Shown here one piece after another: positions 4,207-30,063 of a stretch of DNA of 64,000 nucleotides (position 1 is its first letter; the number at the start of each line of letters is the position of its first letter). The translations under genes were made by a program, and so were the position numbers. This DNA comes from Minisyncoccota bacterium (GTDB lineage: Bacteria; Patescibacteriota; Minisyncoccia; Minisyncoccales; JAQTVQ01). The stretch covers positions 15,313 through 79,312 of the forward strand of contig JBBABZ010000001.1 of the NCBI GenBank assembly GCA_041657385.1, written 5' to 3'. The notes beneath the pieces were generated by a model that saw only the letters and a list, made by a program, of their open reading frames with translations, was not told the DNA's origin and ran no database searches.

Positions 4207-4340
4207 AAGCGTAAAGTGCAAAGCGAAAAGCTTAAAGCAGCGAACGATCGTAGGACGAAAAGCGTTTGCAAACGCTTTTCGTCCTTGTTTTTAGCTTTAC
4301 GCTGTTATTTTACGCTTTTCGCTTTACACTTTACGCTTCT
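4207..4340. repeat. Heptamer-hairpin element, family A, copy A2, with a nested perfect 32-bp palindrome
   Basis: The arms are AAGCGTAAAGTGCAAAGCGAAAAGCTTAAAG and TTTTTAGCTTTACGCTGTTATTTTACGCTTTTCGCTTTACACTTTACGCTT. The centre, GGACGAAAAGCGTTTGCAAACGCTTTTCGTCC (4253-4284), is a perfect palindrome. Confidence 0.8.
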
Positions 4341-4402
4341 TGGTTTCACAAATTCCGAAAAATTTGCTAAGCTTTTAAGCGTCCTAAGAATAGAGACGTC
4401 AA

Positions 4403-5240: not shown

Positions 5241-5388
5241 CCGGCATTAATTGCTTGCAACCCCGTTTTTTTTACCAAAATAATTGCCAGCCCTTTTTAA
5301 ACCAAGATTTTTTTGATAAACTAAATAAGATTTCAACGTTGCACTTTAGTTTCAAAAAAAAGAGTAAAGGATGGCATCGCCACGCTGA

Positions 5389-5477
5389 GAGCGAAGGAGG
5401 GCTTTGCCTCGCCGTAGCTCTAGCAAGAGCGAAGGAGGGCTTTGCCTCGCCGTAGCTCTAGCAAGAGCGAAGGAGGG
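5389..5477 (+). repeat. 38-bp tandem repeat (2.3 copies) running into the 5' end of tRNA-Ala
   Basis: The unit GAGCGAAGGAGGGCTTTGCCTCGCCGTAGCTCTAGCAA starts at 5389, 5427 and 5465. The third copy diverges exactly where tRNA-Ala begins. Confidence 0.85.
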
Positions 5478-5549
5478 GCCTGTAGTACAGTGGTAACACG
5501 CTGCATTCGCATTGCAGAGACGGGAGTCCGATTCTCCCCAGGTCCACCA
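5476..5549 (+). tRNA. tRNA-Ala (anticodon CGC), CCA encoded
   Basis: Acceptor GGGCCTG/CAGGTCC with the G3:U70 alanine identity pair. The anticodon stem is CTGCA/TGCAG with loop TTCGCAT, and the T arm is GGGAG-TCCGATT-CTCCC, followed by ACCA. The D stem is weak (2 Watson-Crick pairs). Confidence 0.8.
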
Positions 5550-5551
5550 CA

Positions 5552-5662
5552 GCTGGAATTTGGAAGCTGGAATTTGGAATCTAGAATCTAGAATTTAGAA
5601 TTCGGATTCCACATTCCATATTCTAAATTCTAAATTCCAGTTTTGAATTCCAGTCTTGAATT
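5552..5662. repeat. Heptamer-hairpin element, family B (GAAT units), copy B1
   Basis: Reads CTGGAATTTGGAAGCTGGAATTTGGAATCTAGAATCTAGAATTTAGAATTCGGATTCC | ACATTCCATATTCTAAATTCTAAATTCCAGTTTTGAATTCCAGTCTTGAA. Positions 5565-5659 look identical to 6387-6481. Confidence 0.85.
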
Positions 5663-5696
5663 GGTTTTTATAAGGCCAGCTAAAAGTTAGGAGGCT

Positions 5697-6413
5697 ATGA
5701 AAACAAAATTTCTTATTGCCGCGATAATCTTAACGGCCGCCGGGGCGGTATTTTTTCTTTGGTTGGGAAAACCAGATTCTCCGCTGGCCGAGCGAATTGC
5801 GCCGGTCTGGCAGACTCTGGAACAAGGAACGGGAACAATAATAGGGGAGGATATCAAATATTCTCCAAGCCACCCGCTGGTCGAGGCGGCGAAAAAACAG
5901 ATCGGAGTTGTTACGAAATATGACACCAGCTACTATCCGGACGGATATCCGCCAACAGACCGCGGAGCGTGCACTGATGTTATAGCACGGGCTCTAAAAA
6001 CCAACGGCTATGATCTGAAAGAAAAGATCGACGCGGATATGGCAGAATATCCGGACAAATATCCGAACGCATCGGATCCGAATATCAATTTCCGTCGGGT
6101 AACGAATGTAAAAATATTTTTAGATAACCACGCGCAAAAGTTATCTACCTGCATCACATCCGAATGTTTTGCGCAAGGTCTTTGGCAAGCAGGAGACATA
6201 GTAACCTTTGACCAAATTCCGGAAAGCTTATGGCACATTGCCATTGTTTCCAATAAAACGAAAAAAAATAACAACCTCGGAGGAGCAATGGTCCCTTTTT
6301 TGGTGCATAACCACGGAGGAGGCACGGTTGAAGACAATATGCTGTTAACTTGGCCCACGCCCATCACCGGCCATTACCGGACCTCAAGCTGGAATTTGGA
6401 ATCTAGAATCTAG
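5697..6413 (+). CDS. DUF1287 domain protein with N-terminal signal/anchor
   Basis: 238 aa with an AGGAGG SD. It reads YDTSYYPDGYPPTDRGACTDVIARALKTNGYDLKEKIDADM...NINFRRVTNV, which matches my recollection of the DUF1287 family. The last codons (WNLESRI*) are encoded by repeat B2. Confidence 0.7.
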   Translation: MKTKFLIAAIILTAAGAVFFLWLGKPDSPLAERIAPVWQTLEQGTGTIIGEDIKYSPSHPLVEAAKKQIGVVTKYDTSYYPDGYPPTDRGACTDVIARALKTNGYDLKEKIDADMAEYPDKYPNASDPNINFRRVTNVKIFLDNHAQKLSTCITSECFAQGLWQAGDIVTFDQIPESLWHIAIVSNKTKKNNNLGGAMVPFLVHNHGGGTVEDNMLLTWPTPITGHYRTSSWNLESRI

Positions 6414-6487
6414 AATTTAGAATTCGGATTCCACATTCCATATTCTAAATTCTAAATTCCAGTTTTGAATTCCAGTCTTGATTCCAG
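6387..6487. repeat. Heptamer-hairpin element, family B, copy B2
   Basis: 95 bp apparently identical to B1. It overlaps the 3' end and stop codon of the DUF1287 gene. Confidence 0.85.
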
Positions 6488-8042: not shown

Positions 8043-10559
8043 ATGCTTGATCTTAAAAATTCGCGGATCTCAAAAGCGATCTTCATTGAAAAATATTTCT
8101 TTCCTGGAGCGCTTGGCCCTCTAAAGACTCTTTTTGAGTTAATCTTTATATTGTTTTCAGCCTCCTACCTTAGCTATTCTTTTCTAGGTCCCATTCCATT
8201 TTCAAAAGAATCCATCTTGGGGGCCGCCTGGATATCGTTCTCTTTATGGGGATTCCTTTGGCTTTTTCTAAGCTTCTTCAGCCAAAAACTGAAAGAGCCT
8301 GCGATAAAAGAATCCGATAACTTGGCTGATTTTTTAGATCTGAACTCGGCCAAAGCCGTGACAAAAGCCATCCATTCTAAAAAATATTCTTTCAGCCTGT
8401 CTCTCTTTCTAATATTGGCGGAAATGCCCGAATTCAAACCGGCTTTTTCAAGACTTTTATTGTCTCGGGAAAAAATTTGCAAGTCTGCCCAAGAAATATG
8501 GGGAAAGGGGGAGGCTGGCGAAGGCAACCGGCTCGAAGAAGCGGAACAGGTTGTTATGTCCGCGCTTAAAATGGCGGCTTCGGAAAATTTGGAAAGAATT
8601 CCTGCTTCCCGCTTGCTGTTCGCCGTTATAGAAAGCCACCCCTTAGCCAAAAAAACTTTGTTTTCGCTCGGCATTTCTAAAAACGATATCGTGGAAACGG
8701 TCCTATGGCAAGAAAAAGCTTTGAACTCCCGAAAGATCGCAAAAAAATTCTGGCTGAAAAAAAATCTCTTGAAAGAAGACAGCATCGGCAGGCACTGGGC
8801 GGCCGGGCATACCTACTTCCTTAATCTTTACTCGCGCGATCTTGCAAATTTCAGAAAGACGCTTCCTTCTCTTGGAGTCATTCTGCATGAAAAACAAATA
8901 AAACAGCTGGAAGACGCTTTAATAGGCTCCAGCGGCGCTACTTCCGCCTTGCTGGTCGGAGAGCCAGGCGTTGGAAGAAAGATGATCTTATCCAATCTGG
9001 CAAATAAAATTTCAGAAGGGCGCAGCTACCGTCCGCTTAATTTCAACAGAATGGTCGAGATCAATATGCCTTCTTTGATAACCGCTTCCCAGAGCATTGA
9101 AGAACTCGAGGTCATTTTGAAATCAATATTCAACGAAGCGATGCGGGCTGGCAACGTCATTCTCGTCATCCGCGAGATCCATAATTACATAGGATCTCAT
9201 TTCGGGGCCAGGGATGTGGCAAAGGTCAACATTTCCGGAATACTGGCGGAATATGCCTCTCTGCCAGGGTTCCGCCTTATCGGCATCGCGACCCCCGAAG
9301 GATTCAACCGCGTTTGGCACCAAACCCAAGAAGTCCTCTCTCATTTCGCGAAAATAGAAGTGCCGCCAGCCACCCCGAAAGAAACGCTGGCAGTTTTGGA
9401 AGAAACAGCTTTGGAAATAGAAAGGCAAACGAAATTTTTGATCACTTTTCCGGCCCTTGAAGAAATAATCGAGCTTGCCGACCGTTATATTTCCGATACT
9501 CCGTTCCCCAAAAAAGCGCTGAATATTTTGGACGGAGTAATTATTTATAAAATAAGGAACGGCAGAAGGGGATCGAACTTGATCTTAAAAAAAGAAGTTG
9601 ATGCCTTGGTCTCCGAAAAGATCGAGATACCGGTAGGAGAAGCGAGTCAAAGGGAAAAAAATGTCCTGCTGAACCTGGAAGACATCATCCACCAGCGGCT
9701 CGTGGGCCAGGAAGAAGCCGTTTCCGAGATCGCTAATGCCCTGCGCCGCGCAAGGGCTGATATTAAAAACGGCAAAAGAACCTTGGGCAGTTTTCTTTTT
9801 CTGGGCCCGACCGGCGTTGGCAAGACAGAAACCGCCAAATGCCTGGCCAGAGCTTATTTCGGCTCGGAAAAAAAAATGATACGGCTCGATATGTCCGAAT
9901 ATCAAGAGATCGGTTCGATCAAAAAATTGATCGGCGACGGAGAAAACCCCGGATACTTTACGACAATGGTCAGGGAAGACCCTTTCTCCCTGATCCTGCT
10001 TGATGAAATTGAAAAGGCCCATCCAAATATCTTAGATCTCTTCCTGCAGATCTTGGACGAAGGACGATCAACCGACGGATCGGGCCGGACCGTTGATTTC
10101 CGAAACACCATTATCATCGCGACCTCGAACGCGGGGGCGGAATTGGTGAGAAACGCCGTTAGAAAAGGTAAAAATCTATCCGAATACAAGCAGGAATTCA
10201 TCGATGAAGTCCTGAAAAAGGGGCTTTTCAGACCGGAATTCCTGAACAGGTTCGATGCGATCGTTCTGTTCCGAACCCTCACGAAAGAACACCTTCAAAA
10301 AATCGCCCGGCTTATGCTTGAAGAGATAAAAAACGGCCTCGACCAAAAGGGAATAGACCTCGCGATCACTTCGGAGCTGGTTGAAAAAATGGCCGAGATC
10401 GGATTTTATCCCGAATTCGGAGCAAGAGAAATGCGAAGGGTCATCCAAGAAAAAGTTGAGAATAGCATTGCCAAAGCAATGTTATCCGGAAACCTCAAAA
10501 CCAGCGACAGCATAAAGATAGACCCCGAAACATTCAAAATACTGGAATCTAGAATTTAG
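8043..10559 (+). CDS. Clp/Hsp100-family double AAA+ ATPase with N-terminal transmembrane segments
   Basis: 838 aa. D2 is canonical (LFLGPTGVGKTETAK, LILLDEIEKAH, the sensor region and ATSN). D1 reads GEPGVGRKM and VILVIREIH. The N-terminal ~80 aa are hydrophobic. The last codons (ILESRI*) come from repeat B3. Confidence 0.8.
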   Translation: MLDLKNSRISKAIFIEKYFFPGALGPLKTLFELIFILFSASYLSYSFLGPIPFSKESILGAAWISFSLWGFLWLFLSFFSQKLKEPAIKESDNLADFLDLNSAKAVTKAIHSKKYSFSLSLFLILAEMPEFKPAFSRLLLSREKICKSAQEIWGKGEAGEGNRLEEAEQVVMSALKMAASENLERIPASRLLFAVIESHPLAKKTLFSLGISKNDIVETVLWQEKALNSRKIAKKFWLKKNLLKEDSIGRHWAAGHTYFLNLYSRDLANFRKTLPSLGVILHEKQIKQLEDALIGSSGATSALLVGEPGVGRKMILSNLANKISEGRSYRPLNFNRMVEINMPSLITASQSIEELEVILKSIFNEAMRAGNVILVIREIHNYIGSHFGARDVAKVNISGILAEYASLPGFRLIGIATPEGFNRVWHQTQEVLSHFAKIEVPPATPKETLAVLEETALEIERQTKFLITFPALEEIIELADRYISDTPFPKKALNILDGVIIYKIRNGRRGSNLILKKEVDALVSEKIEIPVGEASQREKNVLLNLEDIIHQRLVGQEEAVSEIANALRRARADIKNGKRTLGSFLFLGPTGVGKTETAKCLARAYFGSEKKMIRLDMSEYQEIGSIKKLIGDGENPGYFTTMVREDPFSLILLDEIEKAHPNILDLFLQILDEGRSTDGSGRTVDFRNTIIIATSNAGAELVRNAVRKGKNLSEYKQEFIDEVLKKGLFRPEFLNRFDAIVLFRTLTKEHLQKIARLMLEEIKNGLDQKGIDLAITSELVEKMAEIGFYPEFGAREMRRVIQEKVENSIAKAMLSGNLKTSDSIKIDPETFKILESRI

Positions 10560-10675
10560 AATTTGGAATTTGGAATACGGATTCAAGACTGGAATTTGGA
10601 ATCTAGAATTTAGAATTTAGAATTCGGATTCCACATTCCATATTCTAAATTCCAGATTCCAAATTCCAGATTCCA
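10541..10675. repeat. Heptamer-hairpin element, family B, copy B3
   Basis: Reads CTGGAATCTAGAATTTAGAATTTGGAATTTGGAATACGGATTCAAGACTGGAATTTGGAATCTAGAATTTAGAATTTAGAATTCGGATTCCACATTCCATATTCTAAATTCCAGATTCCAAATTCCAGATTCCAG. Confidence 0.85.
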
Positions 10676-10680
10676 GCAGA

Positions 10681-11259: not shown

Positions 11260-11267
11260 AGCGATAA

Positions 11268-11398
11268 AAGCGTAAAGCTAAAAGCGTAAAGCTAAAAGCG
11301 AAAAGTGTAAAGCAGCGAACGGATATTTTAAACTTTACCTGCCTACCGGCAGGCAGGCGCTGTTGTTTTGCGCTTTTCGCTTTACACTTTACGCTTTA
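11268..11398. repeat. Heptamer-hairpin element, family A, copy A4, with GC palindrome
   Basis: The left arm is AAAGCGT AAAGCTA AAAGCGT AAAGCTA AAAGCGA AAAGTGT AAAGCAG (exact period 7). The core is CGAACGGATATTTTAA and the palindrome is CCTGCCTACCGGCAGGCAGG (11339-11358). The right arm is TTTTGCGCTTTTCGCTTTACACTTTACGCTTT. Confidence 0.9.
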
Positions 11399-17298: not shown

Positions 17299-17317
17299 TT
17301 GCCTGCCGGCAGGCAGG
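17299..17317. repeat. Solo GC palindrome TTGCCTGCCGGCAGGCAGG
   Basis: It carries the same palindrome module found inside A4, A5, A8 and D1, here without heptamer arms. Confidence 0.7.
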
Positions 17318-18378: not shown

Positions 18379-19116
18379 ATGAAAAACAAAATTGTTTTGA
18401 TAACCGGAGCGTCGCAGGGAATAGGCAAAGCGATCGCCCTGAAATTCGCAGCGCTTGGCGCGCAAATCGCGCTTAACGACATTCCCAGCCAGGAAGAAAA
18501 TTTAAAGACCGCCAAATCGGAAATAGAAAAGCTCGGAGCCAAAGCCGAATATTTTATGGCCGACGTTTCCAAATTCGATGAAGTGGAAAAAATGATGGCC
18601 GGCATTAAAGAAAAATTCGGAGGCCTGGATGTTCTGGTGAACAACGCCGGCATTGCCAAGGATAGGACATTAGCCAAAATGACCGTTGAAGAATGGCAAA
18701 AAGTGATTGATATTGATTTGACTAGCGTTTTTAATTGCTCCAAACTAGCTTTGCCAATGCTTGTCCCGAACCAAGGAAGCATAGTCAGTCTTTCTTCGGT
18801 AGTCGGGCAGGAAGGAAATTTCGGACAGACCAATTACTCCGCAGCCAAAGCTGGCATTATTGGATTCACTAAATCATTGGCCAAAGAAGTCGGAAGGTTC
18901 GGCGTCAGGGTCAATGCGGTTGCTCCCGGATTTATTGAAACAAAAATGGCTGAAGCCATTCCCGAACAATTGAAAGCTACCGTTAAGCAGCTGACCTCTT
19001 TAGGAAGGTTCGGCCGGCCCGAAGAAGTGGCCAGCGTAATTGCCTTTCTTGCTTCGCCGGATGCTAGCTTTGTGACTGGAGTGGTTCTGAACATTGATGG
19101 AGGGCTGGCGATTTAA
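18379..19116 (+). CDS. fabG: 3-oxoacyl-[ACP/CoA] reductase, SDR family
   Basis: The ATG at 18379 gives [24 protein letters not shown], the Ser-Tyr-Lys context (SSVVG...YSAAKAG), PGFIET and the ending [14 protein letters not shown] are all present. Confidence 0.85.
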
Positions 19117-19222
19117 GCGAAAAGCTAAAAGCGAAAAGTGTAAAATAAACGAACGAATATTTTACGCTTTGCACTTTTGTTTTGCACTTTTCGCTTTACC
19201 TGCCTGCCGGCAGGCAGGCGCT
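19116..19222. repeat. Heptamer-hairpin element, family A, copy A5, with GC palindrome
   Basis: Reads AGCGAAAAGCTAAAAGCGAAAAGTGTAAAATAAACGAACGAATATTTTACGCTTTGCACTTTTGTTTTGCACTTTTCGCTTTA + CCTGCCTGCCGGCAGGCAGG (19199-19218). Confidence 0.85.
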
Positions 19223-20335: not shown

Positions 20336-20462
20336 GGTAAAGTGAAAAAGCGTAAAGTGCAAAGCGAAAAGCGCAAAACAACAGTGCAAAATTTAAAATA
20401 TTCGTTCGCTGTTTTTAGCTTTTCGCTGTTGCTTTACGCTTTGCGCTTTTAGCTTTACGCTT
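20336..20462. repeat. Heptamer-hairpin element, family A, copy A6
   Basis: Reads GGTAAAGTGAAAAAGCGTAAAGTGCAAAGCGAAAAGCGCAAAAC...TTTAAAATATTCGTTCGCTG...TTTTTAGCTTTTCGCTGTTGCTTTACGCTTTGCGCTTTTAGCTTTACGCTT. Confidence 0.9.
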
Positions 20463-20469
20463 AATCTCT

Positions 20470-21969
20470 ATGTTATATTCCAAAGACCAAATCAAAAATA
20501 TCATTCCCTATGATGACCCCTTCCTTTGGGTCGATGAGATCGAGAAGATCGAAGGCGATACAATTTTCGGTTCCAAGCAAACTTCTCCCCAAGATCCGTA
20601 TTTCAAGGGTCATTTCGTTGATTTTCCGATCATGCCGGGCGTTTTGGTCGTAGAAGGGCTTGCCCAAACTGGAACTCTTTTACTTCGCGAAAGGCTTGGC
20701 AGCAGCCACCAGCAAAAACATATCCTAGCCTATCAAGTAAGAAGCGCTATATTCTATTCGCCGATACTGCCCGGAGACAAGATCAAATACAAGGTCCGAT
20801 TGCTCGGTATATACGGCTCCAAGATCGCCAACTTCGTGGGAGAAGCTTATGTGGCAGATACTTTAAAATGCGAGCTTAGATTTTCAGCGGCCATTCTCGA
20901 CAAAAAAGAGATGCAGGAAAAATTCCTGGCCGACAGAACAAATTCCCAGCCGGAAAAGAAAAAACTGTTCGAGCTTCCAGCGCTAAAAGTAGGAAGATTT
21001 ACCGCAAAATTACCGATCATCCAAGGAGGAATGGCTGTCCGCGTTTCCCTTCATAAACTGGCTGGCAATGTCGCCAAAGAAGGCGGGGTAGGAATAATCG
21101 CCGTTTCGGGAATGAAGGATCCGCAGGAAGTAAAAGATGAGATCAGAAAAGCGCGCGCAATTGCCGGAGAAAACGGAGCGATCGGCATCAATATAATGGG
21201 AGTTGTCGGACAATTCAAACAGCTGGTAACCGCGGCGGTTGAAGAAAAAGTCGACCTGATAATCCAGGGAGCGGGATTCCGCACGGACATTTTCGAAATG
21301 ACCAGGGAAAGCTCCATCCCCGTTTTCGCCATGGCTTCATCAGCGAAAGTAGCTAAAAGGGCGGAAGAAGCTGGCGCATCGGCCGTTGTTGTTGAGGGTT
21401 GCGATGCCGGCGGCCACCTTGGATTCCCTCATGGACATCCTTTCCGTAAAACCATAGACATCATAAAGGAGGTCGTTAAAGAAGTGCGCATCCCCGTTAT
21501 CGCCGCTGGAGGCATTTTTGATGGAAAGGATATTGTAGAAATGTTAAGAGCCGGAGCGAAAGGCATTCAAATGGCGACCCGATTCGTTTCGACCGAAGAA
21601 TGCGATGCTGACATAAAATTCAAAGAAGCGCACATCAACGCAAAAAAAGAAGACATCGTTATCATCCATTCGCCAGTGGGCCTGCCCGGCCGAGCGATCA
21701 AAACCCCTTTTGTTGAAAAACTTTTGAAAGGAACTGCGCCCAAGCCCGACCCGATCGAGTGCCAAGGCTGTATAGGACCAGTTTGCGACAAAAGCTATTG
21801 CATCCTGAAAGTACTGGAAAACGCCCGGAAAGGAGACTTGGAAAACGGCCTGGTCTTTGCCGGAGCCAACGTTTGGAGAGTAAACAAAATGACAACGGTC
21901 AAAGCTTTAATAAAAGAACTGGTAGATGAAGCGAATGAAATACTGGCTAAGGAGCCGTTAATATCATAA
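20470..21969 (+). CDS. FabZ-like hot-dog dehydratase fused to a FabK/nitronate-monooxygenase-type enoyl reductase
   Basis: The N-terminus has YFKGHFVDFPIMPGVLVVEGLAQTG (the FabZ/FabA signature). From ~aa 175 it reads LPIIQGGMAVRVS...GVGIIA...VVVEGCDAGGHLG, a TIM-barrel FMN enoyl reductase. Confidence 0.8.
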   Translation: MLYSKDQIKNIIPYDDPFLWVDEIEKIEGDTIFGSKQTSPQDPYFKGHFVDFPIMPGVLVVEGLAQTGTLLLRERLGSSHQQKHILAYQVRSAIFYSPILPGDKIKYKVRLLGIYGSKIANFVGEAYVADTLKCELRFSAAILDKKEMQEKFLADRTNSQPEKKKLFELPALKVGRFTAKLPIIQGGMAVRVSLHKLAGNVAKEGGVGIIAVSGMKDPQEVKDEIRKARAIAGENGAIGINIMGVVGQFKQLVTAAVEEKVDLIIQGAGFRTDIFEMTRESSIPVFAMASSAKVAKRAEEAGASAVVVEGCDAGGHLGFPHGHPFRKTIDIIKEVVKEVRIPVIAAGGIFDGKDIVEMLRAGAKGIQMATRFVSTEECDADIKFKEAHINAKKEDIVIIHSPVGLPGRAIKTPFVEKLLKGTAPKPDPIECQGCIGPVCDKSYCILKVLENARKGDLENGLVFAGANVWRVNKMTTVKALIKELVDEANEILAKEPLIS

Positions 21970-21973
21970 ATAA

Positions 21974-22069
21974 AAAGCGTAAAGTGCAAAGCGAAAAGCG
22001 CAAAACAACAGTGTAAAGCTAAAAGCAACGAACGGATATTTTACACTTTTCGCTTTACGCTTTGCACTT
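21974..22069. repeat. Heptamer-hairpin element, family A, copy A7
   Basis: Reads AAAAGCGTAAAGTGCAAAGCGAAAAGCGCAAAACAACAGTGTAAAGCTAAAAGCAACGAACGGATATTTTACACTTTTCGCTTTACGCTTTGCACTT. Confidence 0.9.
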
Positions 22070-22079
22070 AATATCTCCT

Positions 22080-23018
22080 ATGTTTGAAACTAACAAACTG
22101 ACACAACTTCTCGGCATTGAGTATCCCGTCATCCAAGGCGGTATGGCTGGCATTTCCGAATCAAAACTGGTTTCGGCTGTTTCCAATGCCGGAGGATTAG
22201 GCACCATTGGCGCAGGATTGATGCCGGCTTCTTGGGTGGAGCAGGAGATCCAAAAAACCCGCCAGCTGACTTCAAAACCTTTTGCCGTAAATCTTTTTAT
22301 GCAAAACCAGAAGATTGAAGAAATAGTCAAAGCCATCATCAAAAATAAAGTTCCGATCGTCTTCATCGGAGGCGGCAATCCGATGCTGGTTATGCCTTAT
22401 TTAAAAAGCGCGGGCATCAAAACGATCCCGGTCGTCCCTTCTCCCAGGCTTGCCAAAAAAATGGAAGAAAACGACGCCGACGCAATAGTTGTTGAAGGGG
22501 TAGAATCAGGAGGCCATCTTGGGCCCAACACCACTTTTTGCTTGATCCCGCAAACCGTAGAGCTGGTTAAAAAAATCCCGATTATTGCCGCCGGAGGCAT
22601 TTTTGACGGACAAACCGCGGCGATGGCGATGGCTGCCGGAGCTGACGGCGTCCAAATAGGCACCCGCTTTTTGGCCACCCCTGAATGCATCATCTCCCAA
22701 AGCTATAAGCAAAAGATCGTCGACTCTTCAGCCGATGATATTGAAATTGTTCTGGCTTTTACCGGCCATCCCTTGCGCGTGATCAAAAACAAATGGGCCG
22801 AAGATATGAAAAAATTGGAAACAAAAAATGTTTTTCCCGAAGAGTTGAACGCGGGAAAGATCGCCGGATCCCTAGGAGGAGAAAATGTCGATAATATCCC
22901 TCTTTTAGCCGGGCTTTGCGCGGCCAGCATTAAAGATATAAAATCTTGCCAAGCGATCATTGAAGAGATCGCCAGCTCTTTAAAAAAATATGAACAAAGC
23001 CGTATCAACGATCTGTAA
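22080..23018 (+). CDS. fabK: FabK-type enoyl-[acyl-carrier] reductase II / nitronate monooxygenase family
   Basis: The ATG at 22080 gives MFETNKLTQLLGIEYPVIQGGMAGIS...AIVVEGVESGGHLG...AAGGIFDG. The track start at 22062 is a TTG inside repeat A7. Confidence 0.75.
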   Translation: MFETNKLTQLLGIEYPVIQGGMAGISESKLVSAVSNAGGLGTIGAGLMPASWVEQEIQKTRQLTSKPFAVNLFMQNQKIEEIVKAIIKNKVPIVFIGGGNPMLVMPYLKSAGIKTIPVVPSPRLAKKMEENDADAIVVEGVESGGHLGPNTTFCLIPQTVELVKKIPIIAAGGIFDGQTAAMAMAAGADGVQIGTRFLATPECIISQSYKQKIVDSSADDIEIVLAFTGHPLRVIKNKWAEDMKKLETKNVFPEELNAGKIAGSLGGENVDNIPLLAGLCAASIKDIKSCQAIIEEIASSLKKYEQSRINDL

Positions 23019-23648: not shown

Positions 23649-25184
23649 ATGCCAAAAATAAAAAAAATATTGATCGCCAACAGGGGAGAGGTGGCCCTGC
23701 GGGTCATCCGAACCTGCAAAGAGATGGGGATCAAAACGGTCGCCCTTTGCCCGATGCCGGGCCAGGAAAAATTCTTTTTGGAAACAAAATTAGCCGATGA
23801 ATATCGATTTTTAAATAAAGAAGGGGCTCAAGGCTATCTAGATGCCAAAAAAATCGTCGAAATAGCGAAAGAGGCAGAAGCCGACGCTATCCATCCGGGC
23901 TATGGCTTCCTTTCCGAAAATTGGAAATTCGCCGAACTTTGCCAAAAAAATAAGATCACCTTCATTGGGCCCAGTCCGGCAATTTTGAAAATTTTTGAGG
24001 ATAAGATCAAGGCTAAAAAATTCGCCAAGCTTGCGGGCCTGCCCACCTTGCCGGCCAGCGCCGGGTCTGTCAAAACCCAAAAAGATCTTATGAAATGGGC
24101 GGAAAAGATCGGCTCTCCTTTTGTTCTCAAAGCCCAGCGCGGCGGCGGGGGGATCGGCATAAGAATTATTGATGGAAAAATCACAGTGAACCAAATCTCC
24201 GAGATCTCTTCCGATATCCAAAGACAGATGTCGGTTTCTTTTGCTGACGCCGATTTCTTTTTGGAAAAATATCTGACCGAAGCCAAGCATATTGAATTTC
24301 AAATTCTAGGCGACGGAAAAAATTTCGTCCATCTGGGAGAAAGGGAATGCACCATCCAAAGAAGATTTCAAAAATTGCTGGAGGAAGCCCCGTCTTCTTT
24401 TCTTGATGAAAAATTAAGGAATAAAATGGGAAGCTTGGCGGTCGGCCTCGCCAAAAAATTAGGATATAAGGGCGCCGCCACGGTGGAATTTTTGATAGAT
24501 AAAAACAAAAATTTTTATTTTATGGAGGTCAATCCGCGGCTTCAAGTAGAGCACCCGATCACCGAAGCCATTACCGGAGTTGATATCGTAGCCCAGCAGA
24601 TAAAGATCAGCCAAGGCGAAGAGCTGGATTTCAAGCAAAAAGATATCCGCTTGAACGGCTGGGCTATAGAGGCCAGGATCAACGCCGAAGATCCCCAAAA
24701 AAAATTCCAGCCCGGGCCGGGCACGGTGCAAAAATACCTGCCGCCGGGAGGCCAGGGAATTTTTATGCATACCTTTTTGCAGCAAGGCCAGAAGATATAT
24801 CCTCATTTTGACTCAATGCTGGCCAAGCTGATCGCCTGCGGCAAAACCCGCCAAGAGGCTATTTCCAGGCTCAACCGCGCCTTGGACGAATTGGTCATAG
24901 AAGGAGTACCCACTACCGCTTCGTTCTTTAAAATCGTCCTCGCGGACAAATGTTTTCTAGGGGGAGATTTTTTTACTAATTTTATTGAACGGGAAGAGAT
25001 CGTTCAAAAACTTGCCGAAGGGCCGGCCCAGATCATCTGCGATTCTTGCGACCTAGACGAAGAAGACATCGCCCAGATCATTTTTCAGGTTTATCAAAAA
25101 ATGAAAAAAGAAAAAAAGACCGGATCACCGCAAAAAATTTCCAACTGGATCTTGTCCCAAAGGCTGAAAATGCTGGACAATTAG
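23649..25184 (+). CDS. accC: Biotin carboxylase subunit of an acyl-CoA carboxylase
   Basis: 511 aa. It reads KILIANRGEVALRVIRTCKEMGI, HPGYGFLSEN, the ATP-grasp segment ERECTIQRRFQKLLEEAP, and MEVNPRLQVEHPITE. Confidence 0.9.
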   Translation: MPKIKKILIANRGEVALRVIRTCKEMGIKTVALCPMPGQEKFFLETKLADEYRFLNKEGAQGYLDAKKIVEIAKEAEADAIHPGYGFLSENWKFAELCQKNKITFIGPSPAILKIFEDKIKAKKFAKLAGLPTLPASAGSVKTQKDLMKWAEKIGSPFVLKAQRGGGGIGIRIIDGKITVNQISEISSDIQRQMSVSFADADFFLEKYLTEAKHIEFQILGDGKNFVHLGERECTIQRRFQKLLEEAPSSFLDEKLRNKMGSLAVGLAKKLGYKGAATVEFLIDKNKNFYFMEVNPRLQVEHPITEAITGVDIVAQQIKISQGEELDFKQKDIRLNGWAIEARINAEDPQKKFQPGPGTVQKYLPPGGQGIFMHTFLQQGQKIYPHFDSMLAKLIACGKTRQEAISRLNRALDELVIEGVPTTASFFKIVLADKCFLGGDFFTNFIEREEIVQKLAEGPAQIICDSCDLDEEDIAQIIFQVYQKMKKEKKTGSPQKISNWILSQRLKMLDN

Positions 25185-25185
25185 C

Positions 25186-25621
25186 TAAATCAAATGTCAA
25201 ATCTCAAAAGTCAAAACCACAGCTTAAATCCTAAAAACGAACTAAAATTTCGCCGTTATCGCTTTTCCATTGATATTATCAATGCCAGCAAAGATTTCCC
25301 GAAAGAACGGACATTTGATATTATCGCCAAACAGTTGCTAAGAAGTTCTACCAGTATAGGCGCGAATATTGTTGAGGTAAAATCTTCAAGCTCCCGCAGG
25401 GATTTTATTAAATTTTATGAAATCGCTCTAAAATCCGCTAATGAAACAAAATATTGGCTTGGACTTTTAAGAGATGGTTTGAATTTTGACGGAGAAAAAA
25501 TAAATATATTCTTGGCTGAAGACGATGAGATATCAAAAATGATCGCCGCGAGCCTAATCACATTAAAAGGTAAAAGGCTTTAATCTATATGGTTTTGAGA
25601 TTTGACTTTTGAGTTTTGAAA
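25186..25621 (+). repeat. Heptamer-hairpin element family C (TCAAAA units), copy C1, carrying an ORF in its loop (IVS-like)
   Basis: The left arm is AAATCAAATGTCAAATCTCAAAAGTCAAAACCACAGC (25188-25224). The right arm is GGTTTTGAGATTTGACTTTTGAGTTTTGAAA (25591-25621). TCAAAACC pairs with GGTTTTGA, then arms match 5 of every 7 nt. Confidence 0.8.
25194..25583 (+). CDS. Four-helix-bundle protein (23S rRNA intervening-sequence protein family)
   Basis: 129 aa. It reads AKQLLRSSTSIGANIVEVKSSSSRRDFIKFYEIALKSANETKYWLGLL, matching the family signature (QL.RS..SI.ANI.EG...S..DF..F..IA.GS..E....L). The start codon and first ~14 codons lie in the repeat arm. Confidence 0.8.
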   Translation: MSNLKSQNHSLNPKNELKFRRYRFSIDIINASKDFPKERTFDIIAKQLLRSSTSIGANIVEVKSSSSRRDFIKFYEIALKSANETKYWLGLLRDGLNFDGEKINIFLAEDDEISKMIAASLITLKGKRL

Positions 25622-25628
25622 TAAGCTT

Positions 25629-26003
25629 ATGAAAATAAAGATCAAAGATAAAATTTACGATATTGAGATTTCCGAATCGCAAGAGGGGATCGTTATGATC
25701 AAGGTTAATGATCAAAATTTTGTTTTCCAAGAAAAAAACACTGTTAAAAATATACCGATCAAAGGGTCTAATGAAAGCGCGAAAATAGCTAAAAAAGAAA
25801 TTAGGGCGCCGATAACGGGAACTATTTCCAAAATTTTTACCAAAGAAGGAGAGATGATCGAACCGGGACAGAAAATTTTAAGCCTTTCGGCCATGAAAAT
25901 GGAAAACGAAATAATTTCCGAAGGCAAAGGCAAGATTAAAAAAATCAATGTAAAGGAAGGGCAGCTGGTAAAGGCGAATGAGCTGCTGGCAGAACTTGAA
26001 TAA
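25629..26003 (+). CDS. accB: Biotin carboxyl carrier protein (short form)
   Basis: 124 aa. It has a biotinyl-lysine motif (LSAMKMENEI) in a lipoyl/biotinyl fold C-terminus. Confidence 0.85.
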   Translation: MKIKIKDKIYDIEISESQEGIVMIKVNDQNFVFQEKNTVKNIPIKGSNESAKIAKKEIRAPITGTISKIFTKEGEMIEPGQKILSLSAMKMENEIISEGKGKIKKINVKEGQLVKANELLAELE

Positions 26004-26005
26004 CT

Positions 26006-26158
26006 GCGTAAATTTTCAATTTACAATTCTCAATTTTCCTGCCTACCGGCAGGCAGGCAATGAATGTTTCAATTTTCAAAAATTCCGTTATCGTCATTGA
26101 AGCATTGGAACATTGTAATTTCATTGGAAATTGAAAATTGTAAATTAAAAATTCACGC
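26006..26158. repeat. Heptamer-hairpin element family D (CAATTTT units), copy D1, with GC palindrome
   Basis: The left arm is GCGTAAATTTTCAATTTACAATTCTCAATTTTC. The palindrome is CCTGCCTACCGGCAGGCAGG (26038-26057). The right arm is GAAATTGAAAATTGTAAATTAAAAATTCACGC. Confidence 0.85.
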
Positions 26159-26160
26159 TT

Positions 26161-26691
26161 ATGATCATAAAATCATTCTCTCAGCTAGATTCTACCAACA
26201 CCAAGGCCAAAGAGCTCGCCCAAAACGGCGCCGCGCCTTGGACTGTTGTCATTGCCGATGAACAAACCAACGGTTATGGCAAAGACCAGCGCGGCTGGTT
26301 TTCTCCAAAAGGCGGCCTTTATTTTTCCATCATCCTTCCTGAAAGCAATATCGACGACCTTCAAACGCTAACCATTTTAGCGGCTTTTGCAGCGGCAAAA
26401 ACAATAATGGAAGAATTCAATTTGCAAACTTTTATCAAGCTGCCGAACGATGTCTGGACGAACAATAAAAAAATAGCGGGCATCCTGACCGAAAACATCA
26501 TTTCCGGAAAAAAAATAAAACATTCGGTCATGGGCATAGGCCTCGATACCAATATTGAAAAATTCCCAAAAGAGTTGGCAAGTATCGCCACTTCGCTTAG
26601 AATAGAGCTAGGCAGGGAAGTGGACGATAAAGACCTAATGGAAAAGATAGTAGGAGAACTTAAAAAACAGTTAGAGACGATAAGCAGATAA
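26161..26691 (+). CDS. birA: Biotin--[acetyl-CoA-carboxylase] ligase, catalytic domain only
   Basis: 176 aa. It reads LDSTNTKAKELA, QTNGYGKDQRGWFSPKGGLYFS and NDVWTNNKKIAGILTE. There is no N-terminal HTH. Confidence 0.85.
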   Translation: MIIKSFSQLDSTNTKAKELAQNGAAPWTVVIADEQTNGYGKDQRGWFSPKGGLYFSIILPESNIDDLQTLTILAAFAAAKTIMEEFNLQTFIKLPNDVWTNNKKIAGILTENIISGKKIKHSVMGIGLDTNIEKFPKELASIATSLRIELGREVDDKDLMEKIVGELKKQLETISR

Positions 26692-26695
26692 ATGG

Positions 26696-26824
26696 CTCAA
26701 AAATCAAATCTCAAAATTCAAAACCACAACTAAAAACCAAAAAGCTAAGCGTTATTTAATAAATTATAAAAAGTTAAAAAGTTTTAAATTATAGTTTTGA
26801 GCTTTGACTTTTAAGTTTTGAATT
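26696..26824. repeat. Heptamer-hairpin element family C, copy C2 (ORF-less)
   Basis: The left arm is CTCAAAAATCAAATCTCAAAATTCAAAACCACAAC and the right arm is AGTTTTGAGCTTTGACTTTTAAGTTTTGAATT. The 67-nt loop retains sequence resembling both ends of the C1 insert. Confidence 0.8.
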
Positions 26825-26832
26825 AGAATACT

Positions 26833-28371
26833 ATGTCTTTTGAAAAACAGATCAAAAAACTAAATGAGGAGATCGCGGCGCTCGACAGTCCGGAGATGGC
26901 TGCCAAACAGCACCAAAAAGGAAAGCTGACGGCGCGGGAAAGGATCGGCATCCTCTTAGACAAAGATAGTTTCGTTGAACTTAATCCATTCGTCCAATCC
27001 CGCTTCAATGATTATGGAATGGACCAAAAAAAATTTCCAGGAGACGCGGTGGTCTCCGGTTTTGGCAAGATCAACGGACGGCAAGTCTGCGTCTACAGCC
27101 AGGACTTTTCTAAAATCGGCGGTTCTTTGGGAGAAATGCACGGCCAAAAAATAATTAACGCCATAAAAATGGCCAGGCAAACCGGCTGCCCGACGATCGG
27201 GATCATCGACAGCGGAGGCGCCCGCATCCAAGAAGGAATAGCCAGCCTTGACGGCTATGCCGGAATTTTCAGGGAGATGGTCAAGGCTTCCGGCATTATT
27301 CCTCAAATTTCAATTATCCTGGGCCCTTCAGCCGGCGGAGCTTCTTACGCCCCCGGACTTTCCGACTTTATTTTTATGGTTGAAGGAATTTCTCAAATGT
27401 ATATCACCGGGCCGGAAGTGATAAAATCCGTAACCGGGGAAAATATTTCTTTTAATGATCTTGGCGGAGCTTCAGTCCACTCTTTGCAAAGCGGATGCGC
27501 CCATTTCGTCTCCCAAAATGAAAACGAATGTTTGGAAGGCGTTAAAAAACTTTTGGGTTATCTGCCGCAAAATAATTTGGAAAATCCTCCGGCTAAAAAC
27601 TCTTTCGGCACGGCCGATCTCTGTCCTAAACTCCTGGAAATAGTACCGGAAGAAGAAGGGAAGGGATACGACATGAAAGAAGTGGTTAAGGAAATTTTCG
27701 ATCTTGATTCTTTTTTTGAAGTCCAAGCCGGATTCGCCCCCAACTCTATTGCCGGCTTTGCCCGCTTAGGAGGGCAAACCGTCGGCATCGCGGCCAATCA
27801 GACCAAATCAATGGCCGGAACCCTGGACGTCAATTCTTCGGATAAGATCGCTAGATTTGTCCGGCTTTGCGATGCTTTTAACATCCCCATCATCAATTTG
27901 ATCGATACCCCCGGATATCTTCCCGGCACCGACCAGGAGCACAAAGGCATTATCCGGCACGGCGCTAAAATCCTGTATGCTTATGCCGAAGCCAGCGTTC
28001 CCAAGATCAGTCTTATTTTAAGAAAAGCCTTCGGCGGAGCCTATATCGCCCTGGCTTCCAAAGAGCTGGGATATGACAAAGTCATTGCCTGGCCTTCCGC
28101 CCAGATCGGAGTGATGGGTCCGAAACAAGCGGTAAAAATAATTTTCCACAGAGAATTGGAAAACAGCCAGGACCCGGACAGGCTTGAAAAAGAAAAAATC
28201 CTCGAACTGTCCGAAACTTTTTTGAGCCCGTGGCAAGCGGCCCGGCTAGGAAAATTAGATTTGATCATCGATCCCCAAGAAACCCGGTCCGTATTATTCA
28301 AACTGCTGGAATCCCTGCTCAACAAACGCGAAAGCAAAGCCCCTAGAAAGCACGGTAATATTCCTCTATAA
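26833..28371 (+). CDS. Acyl-CoA carboxylase carboxyltransferase subunit (PccB/AccD5-like, fused alpha+beta CT)
   Basis: 512 aa. It reads GKLTARERI, GDAVVSGFGKINGRQV, IDSGGARIQEG and AFGGAYIA, typical of propionyl/acetyl-CoA carboxyltransferases. Confidence 0.85.
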   Translation: MSFEKQIKKLNEEIAALDSPEMAAKQHQKGKLTARERIGILLDKDSFVELNPFVQSRFNDYGMDQKKFPGDAVVSGFGKINGRQVCVYSQDFSKIGGSLGEMHGQKIINAIKMARQTGCPTIGIIDSGGARIQEGIASLDGYAGIFREMVKASGIIPQISIILGPSAGGASYAPGLSDFIFMVEGISQMYITGPEVIKSVTGENISFNDLGGASVHSLQSGCAHFVSQNENECLEGVKKLLGYLPQNNLENPPAKNSFGTADLCPKLLEIVPEEEGKGYDMKEVVKEIFDLDSFFEVQAGFAPNSIAGFARLGGQTVGIAANQTKSMAGTLDVNSSDKIARFVRLCDAFNIPIINLIDTPGYLPGTDQEHKGIIRHGAKILYAYAEASVPKISLILRKAFGGAYIALASKELGYDKVIAWPSAQIGVMGPKQAVKIIFHRELENSQDPDRLEKEKILELSETFLSPWQAARLGKLDLIIDPQETRSVLFKLLESLLNKRESKAPRKHGNIPL

Positions 28372-29254: not shown

Positions 29255-29935
29255 ATGCCCGCTTCTTATTTTTTAATATCCCTTTTCTCTTACCTGCTCG
29301 GTTCAATACCGGCCGCTATTTTAATTGGAAAACTTTTCACCAAGAAAAATTTTCAAGAAGAGGGAAGCGGCAATCTTGGCGCCACCAACGCTTTAAGAAT
29401 CGTCAGCAAAGAAAAAGGGAAATTCTGGGGAACCGCGGCCTTTCTTGCCGTTTTTCTTTTTGACGCCAGCAAAGCAGTGGCCGCTTGTTTGATCGCAACG
29501 AACTTTATTCCCGATCGGACCGCAGCTTTAACTCTGGCCGCCTTTTTTACCGTTCTTGGCCATAATTATTCATTGTTTTTAAAATTCCGGGGAGGGAGGG
29601 GAGCTGCTTCCTTGCTTGGCGTCCTCTTATTTTTCGATTGGCGCGTCTTTTTAGCTTGGGTTGGAACTTTTTTGGCCGTAGCCGTTATCTTTGAGGCTGT
29701 TGAAAGCAAAAAAATCGACAAAAAAATAGTGGCCAGAGCCGCTAACCGCCAAATTATCGGCCGTCTTGTTGGAGAGGTCTTAGCCCTTATTCCCATCTAC
29801 CTTCTCAATCAAACTCTTTTTTGGCCAACCCTTTTCGCTACGCCATTGATCCTTATCAAACATAAAGAAAGGGTGAAAAGACAGTTGCAAGAGATAGCTG
29901 AAAGCGTAAAGCTAAAAGCGCAAAGCGTAAAGTAA
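29255..29935 (+). CDS. plsY: Glycerol-3-phosphate acyltransferase PlsY (acyl-phosphate dependent)
   Basis: 226 aa. It reads YLLGSIP and GSGNLGATNALR. The last ~11 codons (ESVKLKAQSVK*) are encoded by repeat A8. Confidence 0.85.
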   Translation: MPASYFLISLFSYLLGSIPAAILIGKLFTKKNFQEEGSGNLGATNALRIVSKEKGKFWGTAAFLAVFLFDASKAVAACLIATNFIPDRTAALTLAAFFTVLGHNYSLFLKFRGGRGAASLLGVLLFFDWRVFLAWVGTFLAVAVIFEAVESKKIDKKIVARAANRQIIGRLVGEVLALIPIYLLNQTLFWPTLFATPLILIKHKERVKRQLQEIAESVKLKAQSVK

Positions 29936-30063
29936 CAGCGCCTGCCTGCCGGTAGGCAGGTAAAGCTAAAAGCAACGAACGGATATTTTTAGCTTTACGC
30001 TTTTGTTTTGCGCTTTTCGCTTTGCACTTTACGCTTCCTTGCTTTACGCTTCCTTACGCTTTT
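29900..30063. repeat. Heptamer-hairpin element, family A, copy A8, with GC palindrome
   Basis: Reads GAAAGCGTAAAGCTAAAAGCGCAAAGCGTAAAGTAACAGCG + CCTGCCTGCCGGTAGGCAGG (29941-29960) + TAAAGCTAAAAGCAACGAACGGATATTTTTAGCTTTACGCTTTTGTTTTGCGCTTTTCGCTTTGCACTTTACGCTTCCTTGCTTTACGCTT. Confidence 0.9.

Follow-up and report, generated by a model that had tools for sequence, protein, structure and literature searches.

Results

C1 and its host operon

The 64-kb stretch of Minisyncoccota DNA analyzed here (42.6% GC; referred to below as the window) includes an acc operon in which the spacer between accC and the gene for the biotin carboxyl carrier protein (BCCP) is occupied by an element, C1, that consists of a gene for a 129-aa four-helix-bundle (4HB) protein set between two inverted arms of tandem heptamers. 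Two hairpins without an open reading frame (ORF), D1 and C2, lie farther along the same operon, and Pfam matches agree with the gene order given in an earlier note on this DNA: accC, C1, BCCP, D1, birA, C2, and the carboxyltransferase (CT) gene (Table 1).

Each arm of C1 is 30 nt long and is composed of four heptamers, which follow the pattern TCAAANN in the left arm and its complement in the right. The two arms are 80% complementary and stand 370 nt apart, which agrees with the earlier note, where this ORF-bearing loop of about 370 nt had been likened in its stem geometry to the intervening sequences (IVSs) of rRNA genes. There are 5 nt between the accC stop codon and the left arm, and 9 nt separate the end of the right arm from the BCCP start codon. 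Two details of the proposed geometry needed correction. The left arm does contain the ATG (25194) of the 4HB gene, but its well-paired part takes in only the first ~9 codons and not ~14, pairing beyond this point being weak (a weaker extension, CCACAGCTTAAATCC..., reaches about 25245); and the right arm starts 6 to 7 nt after the stop codon rather than 8 nt. The C1 flanks have an inverted-repeat score of 36, whereas none of 1000 shuffles scored above 28. In the predicted RNA fold, the arms pair as 5-bp helices with 2x2 mismatches between them, at the two variable positions of the heptamer, and the element as a whole folds with z = -3.0. No sigma-70-like promoter was seen immediately upstream of the 4HB ORF in the window, and the 64 kb contain no second 4HB gene and no rRNA, the only Rfam matches being 4 tRNAs.

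The four-helix-bundle protein

The ORF belongs to the family to which the earlier note had assigned it: in profile searches it matches PF05635 (23S_rRNA_IVP; E 8.6e-23, 81 bits, cutoff 33.8) and TIGR02436 (“four helix bundle protein”; E 3.2e-25, 88.5 bits, cutoff 24), and the protein has a sequence match to PDB entry 2RLD (E 3e-17). The conserved family motif is GxxRxxxSxxxNxxE (PMC3936711); its RxxxSxxxNxxE portion is present at residues 50 to 61 (RSSTSIGANIVE), and in the clade of the window protein the G position is Q. An AlphaFold (AF2) model built on 20 homologues places helices at residues 13-32, 39-64, 68-95, and 100-125 (mean pLDDT 87.7), with residues 1-11 at the N terminus disordered. 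Its best structural matches by Foldseek are 2RLD (TM 0.78/0.90) and 2GSC (TM 0.74/0.84), both of which have 5 chains in the crystal. The suggested kinship with the Avd protein of diversity-generating retroelements (DGRs) stands at the level of the fold (4DWL and 8UB7; TM about 0.8 relative to the target, E about 0.2-0.3, identity 10-12%) but not at that of sequence, where the matches go to the 2RLD/TIGR02436 branch instead. In profile searches the 4HB protein, which is the sole ORF of the cassette, matched no catalytic family, transposases and recombinases included.

The window protein is basic (pI 9.7), and its N-terminal 24 residues carry a charge of +4.6. The N-terminal tail, MSNLKSQNH, is the arm heptamers translated, and the peptide SKLKxQNHNxKxK, common to 19 close homologues that we retrieved and aligned, is the in-frame translation of (TCAAAAN)3 and the arm sequence that follows. 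For the protein core, the median dN/dS is 0.066 (33 pairs), and by this measure the protein is under strong purifying selection. At E <= 0.001, the window protein matches 5,890 representatives of 50%-identity clusters. An identical protein is recorded in the database under Candidatus Paceibacterota, a lineage of the candidate phyla radiation.

Heptamer arms around homologues in other bacteria

We fetched 80 loci with homologues 44 to 65% identical to the window protein, from Patescibacteria, Chloroflexota, Omnitrophota, Planctomycetota, Verrucomicrobiota, Bacteroidota, Thermodesulfovibrionales, Atribacterota, and one archaeal bin; 75 were scorable for arms. The reading in the earlier note would have fallen if C-type arms were never found beside other 4HB genes, but they are: inverted heptamer arms bracket the ORF in 57 of these 75 homologues, compared with 16 of 421 control ORFs (other ORFs of the same loci). 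In the true register the arms are 81% complementary; the value drops to 58% with a shift of 7 or 14 nt and to 27% with other shifts. Both arms also contain, at mirrored positions, a unique inner motif (CCACAGC, CTACAGC, or TTACAAT), so that these are true inverted repeats rather than a mere pair of microsatellites. Ten further, divergent 4HB paralogues occur in the same loci, 8 of them bracketed by arms, one a truncated fragment, and one armless; their heptamers are their own (CAGACAT, GTATTTG, CGAATCA, GTAATTA, AATCAGA, and AATGTCA). The more alike two proteins are in their core, the more alike are their arms (Spearman 0.57, a value reached by 0 of 500 permutations), and in this comparison the arms track the clade of the 4HB protein. 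An exact-match search found no sarcin-ricin-loop motif, and no 23S context was seen, in the 80 homologous loci; no 4HB relatives were found in viral contigs.

A tblastn search of plasmids returned 34 records with a 4HB homologue; Nostoc accounts for 19 of these. We inspected eight plasmid-borne genes, from cultured Dolichospermum, N. flagelliforme, N. punctiforme PCC 73102, Planktothrix, Gloeocapsa, Treponema, Bernardetia, and Chlorohelix, and all eight have inverted heptamer arrays on both flanks. Those of Dolichospermum and N. flagelliforme are perfect and fully complementary, and the other six are less regular. The heptamers of these plasmid genes are TAATTCG (arranged as (TAATTCG)5 ... (CGAATTA)5), AGGTCGG, AATCGTA, TTTAGAT, GAAAGTG, and GATTAGT.

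Two of the plasmid loci call for separate comment. Upstream of the 4HB gene on Dolichospermum plasmid pAfl69 (L091, 1400-1450), (TAATTCG)5 is followed in tandem by (TTTGGAA)6; only (TAATTCG)5 has an inverted partner downstream, and TTTGGAA is the unit GGAATTT of the B-type hairpins in the window (see below). On plasmids of Gloeocapsa PCC 7428 (L095) and Ca. Chlorohelix (L098), a TTTAGAT-type cassette lies between the genes for DUF1156 and Swt1-family HEPN proteins; judging from these two records, a whole defense operon, cassette included, appears to have been transferred between a cyanobacterium and a member of the Chloroflexota.

Insertion, placement, and orientation

Four relatives (L086, L088, L089, and L090) keep the order NMO, acyltransferase, accC, BCCP, birA, CT, and DegV wherever the contig is long enough. 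The accC-BCCP spacer is 444 nt in the window but 16 nt in L089 (BCCP 68% identical) and 27 nt in L090 (70%), and these empty orthologous spacers mark C1 as an insertion in the window. In L086 (BCCP 82% identical), the same spacer holds a D-type ORF-less hairpin, and in L088 (76%), a C-like one. The extent of the moving unit can be read from two copies in one WOR-3 genome (L020 and L023; proteins 90% identical), where nucleotide similarity runs from left arm to right arm only, the flanks being unrelated; on this alignment, the moving unit is the arm-to-arm segment. Divergence between the two copies is uneven: the 5′ third of the ORF (alignment columns about 214-330) is ~75% identical and the 3′ two-thirds ~97%, which suggests recombination or gene conversion between cassettes.

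From arm to arm, the cassettes measure 446 nt in the median (range, 410-581 nt). The left arm lies a median of 6 nt after the upstream stop codon, and the right arm a median of 11 nt before the next start codon. The upstream gene is co-oriented with the 4HB gene in 69 of 74 cases, against a background of 71.5% (p = 3e-6), and both neighbors are co-oriented in 55 of 70. The 150 immediate neighbor proteins of the homologues fall into 126 clusters; those in cultured strains include DISARM drmD with MmeI, DUF1156 with a HEPN protein, a helicase with a methyltransferase, and recF.

The other two acc spacers, BCCP-birA and birA-CT, carry a heptamer hairpin in all four relatives wherever they are readable (the BCCP-birA hairpin of L090 is weak, and the birA-CT spacer of L086 runs off the contig end). 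The heptamer family found in the acc spacers differs among genomes whose BCCPs are 65 to 82% identical, a pattern which, at the level of these comparisons, shows rapid replacement of heptamer hairpins at fixed positions of the operon.

C2 and its relation to C1

Alignment confirmed that C2 has both arms of C1. The match extends over ~53 nt at the left and ~58 nt at the right, with ~25 unrelated nt between, so dividing C2 into a left piece (about 26696-26745) and a right piece (about 26767-26824). The left match, which reads TCAAA..TCAAAACCACA[G/A]CT.AAA.CC.AAAA, comprises the arm and about 20 further nt; on the right, the match includes the C1 stop codon and the 7 codons before it. The loop ends of C2 had been said to resemble those of C1, and this proved correct for the right end, whose similarity score of 26 was attained neither in 1000 shuffles nor in 216 window segments just as rich in AT (maximum 22), but the left-end similarity by itself is not significant. 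Since the C-terminal codons lie outside the arms in the wider 4HB family, their retention in C2 argues for internal deletion of an ORF-bearing copy, and C2 is best read as an ORF-less derivative of such a cassette. Of the relationship that the earlier note had drawn between an autonomous copy and an internally deleted one, the second term is thus upheld; “autonomous” is unproven, there being no known catalytic mobility function for such a protein and no target-site duplication seen by eye.

The right arm of C2 contains a match to -35/-10 elements (region 26804-26832; TTGACT, 17 nt, AATACT) that ends 1 nt before the CT start codon. TTGAC in T-rich arms of this kind could give such hairpins outward promoter activity.

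Other heptamer hairpins of the window

About 13 heptamer hairpins, of four families, were found in the window. Arms of the A type directly flank main-clade 4HB genes in L123, L011, L028, and L059, and those of the D type (AATTTTC) flank a divergent 4HB gene in L124, where the start codon again lies inside the arm. For the B type (GGAATTT), the fetched loci yielded no 4HB gene with such arms; GGAATTT arrays adjoin the Dolichospermum 4HB cassette. An exact A-type 23-mer, GCGTAAAGTGCAAAGCGAAAAGC, occurs in 28 metagenome contigs of 35 to 63% GC, and in 27 of the 28 loci it is not beside a 4HB gene (two of these have one elsewhere), which implies that ORF-less copies greatly outnumber intact ones. 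The best reading of C2, D1, and the A-type hairpins, all of which have arms in common with ORF-bearing cassettes, is as derivatives that lack the ORF, in the manner of miniature inverted-repeat transposable elements (MITEs).

The hairpins are confined to the first ~36 kb of the window (1-36200), with none detected in 36200-64000. A loop motif of the A-type hairpins, GCAACGAACGGATATTTTA or its reverse complement, recurs at about 2575-2600, 11320-11335, 19150-19165, 20398-20412, 22012-22032, and 29975-29995; family A is thus more than heptamer arrays, being a dispersed element whose internal sequence is conserved too. A GC-rich mini-hairpin, CCTGCC(N3-8)GGCAGG, occurs 5 times in the window (11338-11357, 17302-17317, 19199-19218, 26038-26057, and 29941-29960), where 0.04 would be expected. 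Four of the five are at A- or D-type hairpins, three of them inside and one just past the right arm, and the module is also present in ORF-less hairpins of L088 and L090; it looks like shared cargo or a terminator-like module.

Whole genes lie between two hairpins of the same family at 20470-21969 (A type; region 20341-22094) and 5697-6413 (B type; region 5548-6481). These genes have the highest flank inverted-repeat scores of the window (90 and 84), and the arrangement resembles, in layout at least, a composite element. A perfect 38-nt tandem repeat (5388-5477; 2.4 copies, 100% identity) runs into the 5′ end of a tRNA gene (5476-5546), which is followed by the B-type hairpin at 5548-5645.

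Table 1. Features of the acc operon, the C1 element, and the ORF-less hairpins in the window
Feature	Coordinates	Strand	Evidence
accC (biotin carboxylase), upstream host gene	23649..25184	+	Pfam Biotin_carb_N / CPSase_L_D2 / Biotin_carb_C
C1 left arm, heptamers TCAAATG TCAAATC TCAAAAG TCAAAAC + CA	25190..25219	+	Inverted repeat, fold, period 7
4HB protein gene, 129 aa	25194..25583	+	PF05635, TIGR02436, fold, homologues
C1 right arm (TGGTTTTGAGATTTGACTTTTGAGTTTTGA)	25590..25619	+	Inverted repeat, fold, period 7, flank score
BCCP (biotin carboxyl carrier protein), downstream host gene	25629..26003	+	Pfam Biotin_lipoyl; orthologues
D1, ORF-less hairpin with AATTTTC-type heptamer arms and inner GC-rich mini-hairpin (26038-26057)	26006..26158	+	Inverted repeat
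Biotin-protein ligase (birA-like) gene	26161..26691	+	Pfam BPL_LplA_LipB
C2, best read as ORF-less derivative of C1-type cassette	26696..26824	+	Alignment with C1
Carboxyltransferase (CT) gene	26833..28371	+	Pfam Carboxyl_trans
A-type ORF-less hairpin (GCGTAAA / GTGCAAA / GCGAAAA), example	20341..20469	.	
Other A-type copies	about 2526-2674, 4194-4351, 11265-11398, 19103-19208, 21957-22094, 29896-30036		
B-type ORF-less hairpin (GGAATTT / AGAATCT), example	10541..10678	.	
Other B-type copies	5548-5645, 6384-6481		

Discussion

The closest known system is that of the rRNA IVSs with an S23p (23S_rRNA_IVP) ORF, as found in Leptospira, Coxiella burnetii, and the rRNA genes of the candidate phyla radiation (CPR). 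C1 shares with these the protein family, the position of the ORF in the loop of a long terminal-inverted-repeat stem, heptamers next to the ORF start, and transcription only within the host transcript. Like them, it is sporadic and horizontally acquired, the corresponding spacer being empty in L089 and L090 and otherwise filled in L086 and L088. In Coxiella, the stem is cut by RNase III, and GACAGAT heptamer repeats lie upstream of the S23p ORF, in the stem region at the 5′ end of the IVS (PMC4990558); in CPR genomes, PF05635 has been reported in rRNA insertions (PMC11270868). However, C1 lies in a protein-coding operon spacer and not in a 16S or 23S rRNA helix, its start codon is inside the arm, and ORF-less derivatives are abundant. 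Moreover, the cassette protein is under strong purifying selection, unlike the Coxiella IVS ORF, which has been judged to be decaying.

As in transposon/MITE pairs, there are terminal inverted repeats, short copies that share both ends, many dispersed copies, presence/absence polymorphism, and spread over unrelated hosts; what differs is the lack of a recognizable transposase, the strict orientation with host transcription, and the wedging between stop and start codons. Avd, a basic four-helix-bundle protein that forms a pentamer in an RNA-protein complex (4DWL, 8UB7, and 8UB8), provides another parallel, although C1 has no reverse transcriptase or template repeat nearby. Repetitive extragenic palindromes and the mosaic elements built from them (REP/BIME) are likewise short intergenic hairpins that fill operon spacers in many copies per genome, but they lack the 7-nt periodicity inside the arms, and their associated protein is a Y1 (RAYT) transposase rather than a 4HB protein.

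Tandem heptamer repeats have been catalogued for decades in cyanobacteria, where they are known as STRR sequences, and in Xanthomonas and Beggiatoaceae. No partner is known from the descriptions of them in Nostoc, Xanthomonas, and Beggiatoaceae (PMC4692102, PMC4679880, and bioRxiv 10.1101/2022.06.06.494920), and for the TTCAAAA repeats of Nostoc 7120 in particular, the interacting partner is unidentified (bioRxiv 10.1101/2022.06.06.494920). The Nostoc 7120 unit (TTCAAAA / TTTTGAA) is the C-type unit, and both sets of repeats are intergenic tandem heptamers close to start codons. Whereas the described repeats are direct arrays with no linked gene, ours are inverted pairs around, or derived from, a specific gene. 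A full-text search, of incomplete coverage, found no published link of PF05635 to flanking heptamer arms outside rRNA, the only such heptamers being those of the Coxiella IVS. PF05635 genes outside rRNA are widely annotated.

On balance, we consider C1 to be, with fair probability, an intact copy of a widespread, horizontally moving IVS-type cassette of operon spacers and the ORF-less hairpins to be its derivatives. The cassette, as we picture it, would measure about 410-580 nt in all and consist of a promoter-less PF05635 4HB gene between 30-55-nt inverted arms of tandem heptamers; it would fill the spacer between one stop codon and the next start codon and point the same way as the host operon. 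Because it lies in this orientation between cistrons, the host promoter would transcribe it. In the operon transcript the arms would then base-pair with each other and hide the 4HB start codon, and RNase III would cut the paired arms, as it does in 23S rRNA IVSs, freeing the cassette and leaving the flanking cistrons unharmed. Cutting without religation would be harmless only in intercistronic spacers and at expendable rRNA helix tips, and the elements would for this reason persist only there. The basic, probably pentameric, Avd-like protein may bind its own heptamer arrays, at about 4-6 heptamers per arm, and may be needed for maintenance or spread of the cassette, acting in trans for the ORF-less copies. 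Of the two mechanistic ideas in the earlier note, cleavage of the arms in mRNA is plausible from the precedent of the rRNA IVSs; action of the protein on the arms is plausible because arms and protein co-vary, because the protein is basic, and by analogy to Avd. We would go further only as a conjecture, and one that may well prove wrong: PF05635 proteins could be the partner of bacterial tandem heptamer repeats in general, the cyanobacterial ones included, each clade recognizing a heptamer of its own, with the gene and its inverted arrays propagating themselves and seeding ORF-less hairpins, and with the ORF-bearing rRNA IVSs as the subset that landed in rRNA.

Several observations weigh against this picture of C1. 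No target-site duplication is evident by eye at the junctions of the window, of L020/L023, or of the plasmid copies, where the ends are fuzzy and the inspection was not systematic. No catalytic mobility protein was seen in the window, nor was an RNase III gene or signature in its 64 kb, and we know of no catalytic mobility function for a 129-aa four-helix bundle. The C1 stem is broken every 7 nt, the two variable heptamer positions being mostly mismatched, and as modeled, a stem of 5-bp blocks and 2x2 loops is a poor classical RNase III substrate. The C2 hairpin (-16.3 kcal/mol, z = -0.7) is no more stable than shuffles. Across 58 arm pairs, mismatches are G.U in 78 cases, A.C in 95, and of other (transversion-type) kinds in 318, which amounts to no wobble bias; with no excess of G.U over A.C, there is no sign of selection for an RNA helix as opposed to inverted repeats in DNA. 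The co-variation of arms and protein would be accounted for just as well by co-inheritance, and the hairpins of other families in the same three spacers of relatives could mean that these elements are useful to the host rather than selfish. Finally, it has been argued that the Coxiella IVS protein is probably not made (PMC4990558).

The lack of wobble bias, the interrupted C1 stem, and the weak C2 stem make a DNA-level mechanism a serious rival, if on the whole an unlikely one. The arms would in that case be terminal inverted repeats of protein-binding heptamers, comparable to the repeats that Tn7, Mu, or CACTA elements have subterminally. The 4HB protein would bind the ends as a mobility factor, in partnership with a nuclease or recombinase that belongs to the host or is unlinked, and RNA folding and RNase III would be irrelevant. 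Such a transposon/MITE system would account for element boundaries at the outer arm ends (L020/L023), for the surplus of ORF-less over ORF-bearing copies, for mismatch types that are strand-symmetric as DNA predicts, for the mirrored inner motif (CCACAGC / TTACAAT), and for identical 23-mers across hosts of 35-63% GC. It is harder to reconcile with a protein that has no catalytic domain and the fold of 2RLD, 2GSC, and Avd, or with the inspected junctions, where no target-site duplication was seen; very strong co-orientation and stop-to-start placement are not expected of a purely DNA element, and for the related rRNA IVSs, processing at the RNA level has been demonstrated (PMC4990558). Less probable still, in our estimation, is that the hairpins are modules serving the host, that is, cis-acting operon elements for mRNA processing or stability, termination, or translational coupling in the manner of REP/BIME, with the 4HB protein as their dedicated trans-acting regulator and C1 as its locus. 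Each of the three acc spacers does hold a hairpin, both in the window and in most relatives, the hairpins fit the spacers precisely, the protein is under strong purifying selection, and the TTCAAAA repeats of Nostoc 7120 influence recF and recO expression (bioRxiv 10.1101/2022.06.06.494920). A host-serving role does not, however, sit well with a heptamer family that varies from one close relative to the next at a given spacer, with an accC-BCCP spacer that is empty in two of them, with an AT-rich element inside genomes of 61-63% GC, with the same cassette in operons as unrelated as DISARM, MmeI, DUF1156/HEPN, and acc, or with arm-to-arm duplication within one genome.

Two other candidates were rejected. 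That C1 is the remnant of a DGR, its ORF being the Avd accessory gene, would fit the fold-level similarity to Avd (4DWL and 8UB7; TM about 0.8 relative to the target) and the finding that, of the families near DGR reverse transcriptases, PF05635 is the most frequent (PMC10053308). It is nevertheless very improbable: the neighbors are acc genes, there is no reverse transcriptase nearby and no pair of template and variable repeats (TR/VR), the sequence matches are to the 2RLD/TIGR02436 branch and not to Avd, and the neighbors at the 80 homologous loci are diverse housekeeping genes. Chance and low complexity, by which the arms would be ordinary AT-rich microsatellites and the likeness of C1 and C2 compositional, can draw on the AT-rich region, the nonsignificant left loop end, and a C2 fold equal to shuffles. 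They are refuted by the shuffle and control-ORF tests (a flank score of 36 against 28, a right-end score reached by 0/1000 shuffles and 0/216 segments, and arms at 57/75 homologues against 16/421 controls), and we give them practically no credence.

Taken together, the structural and evolutionary interpretation offered in the earlier note is supported and holds far beyond the window. To our knowledge, the S23p/23S_rRNA_IVP family has had crystal structures since 2006 and has no assigned function. The present analysis ties this family and the heptamer repeats together as one physical unit, a gene and its inverted arrays, and shows that this unit moves; the rRNA IVSs are probably one special case of it. 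Genes of PF05635 have been noticed inside cas loci (PMC3936711) and beside CRISPR arrays (PMC10910872), the repeats being unmentioned in both reports; the link between gene and arrays may explain this “association” of the family with cas and other defense operons and with the output of CRISPR-array finders. For the annotation of CPR genomes, it means that many intergenic hairpins become identifiable as derivatives of one element class. And because gene and arrays form one unit, both the function of the family and the partner of the repeats become testable in cultivable organisms.

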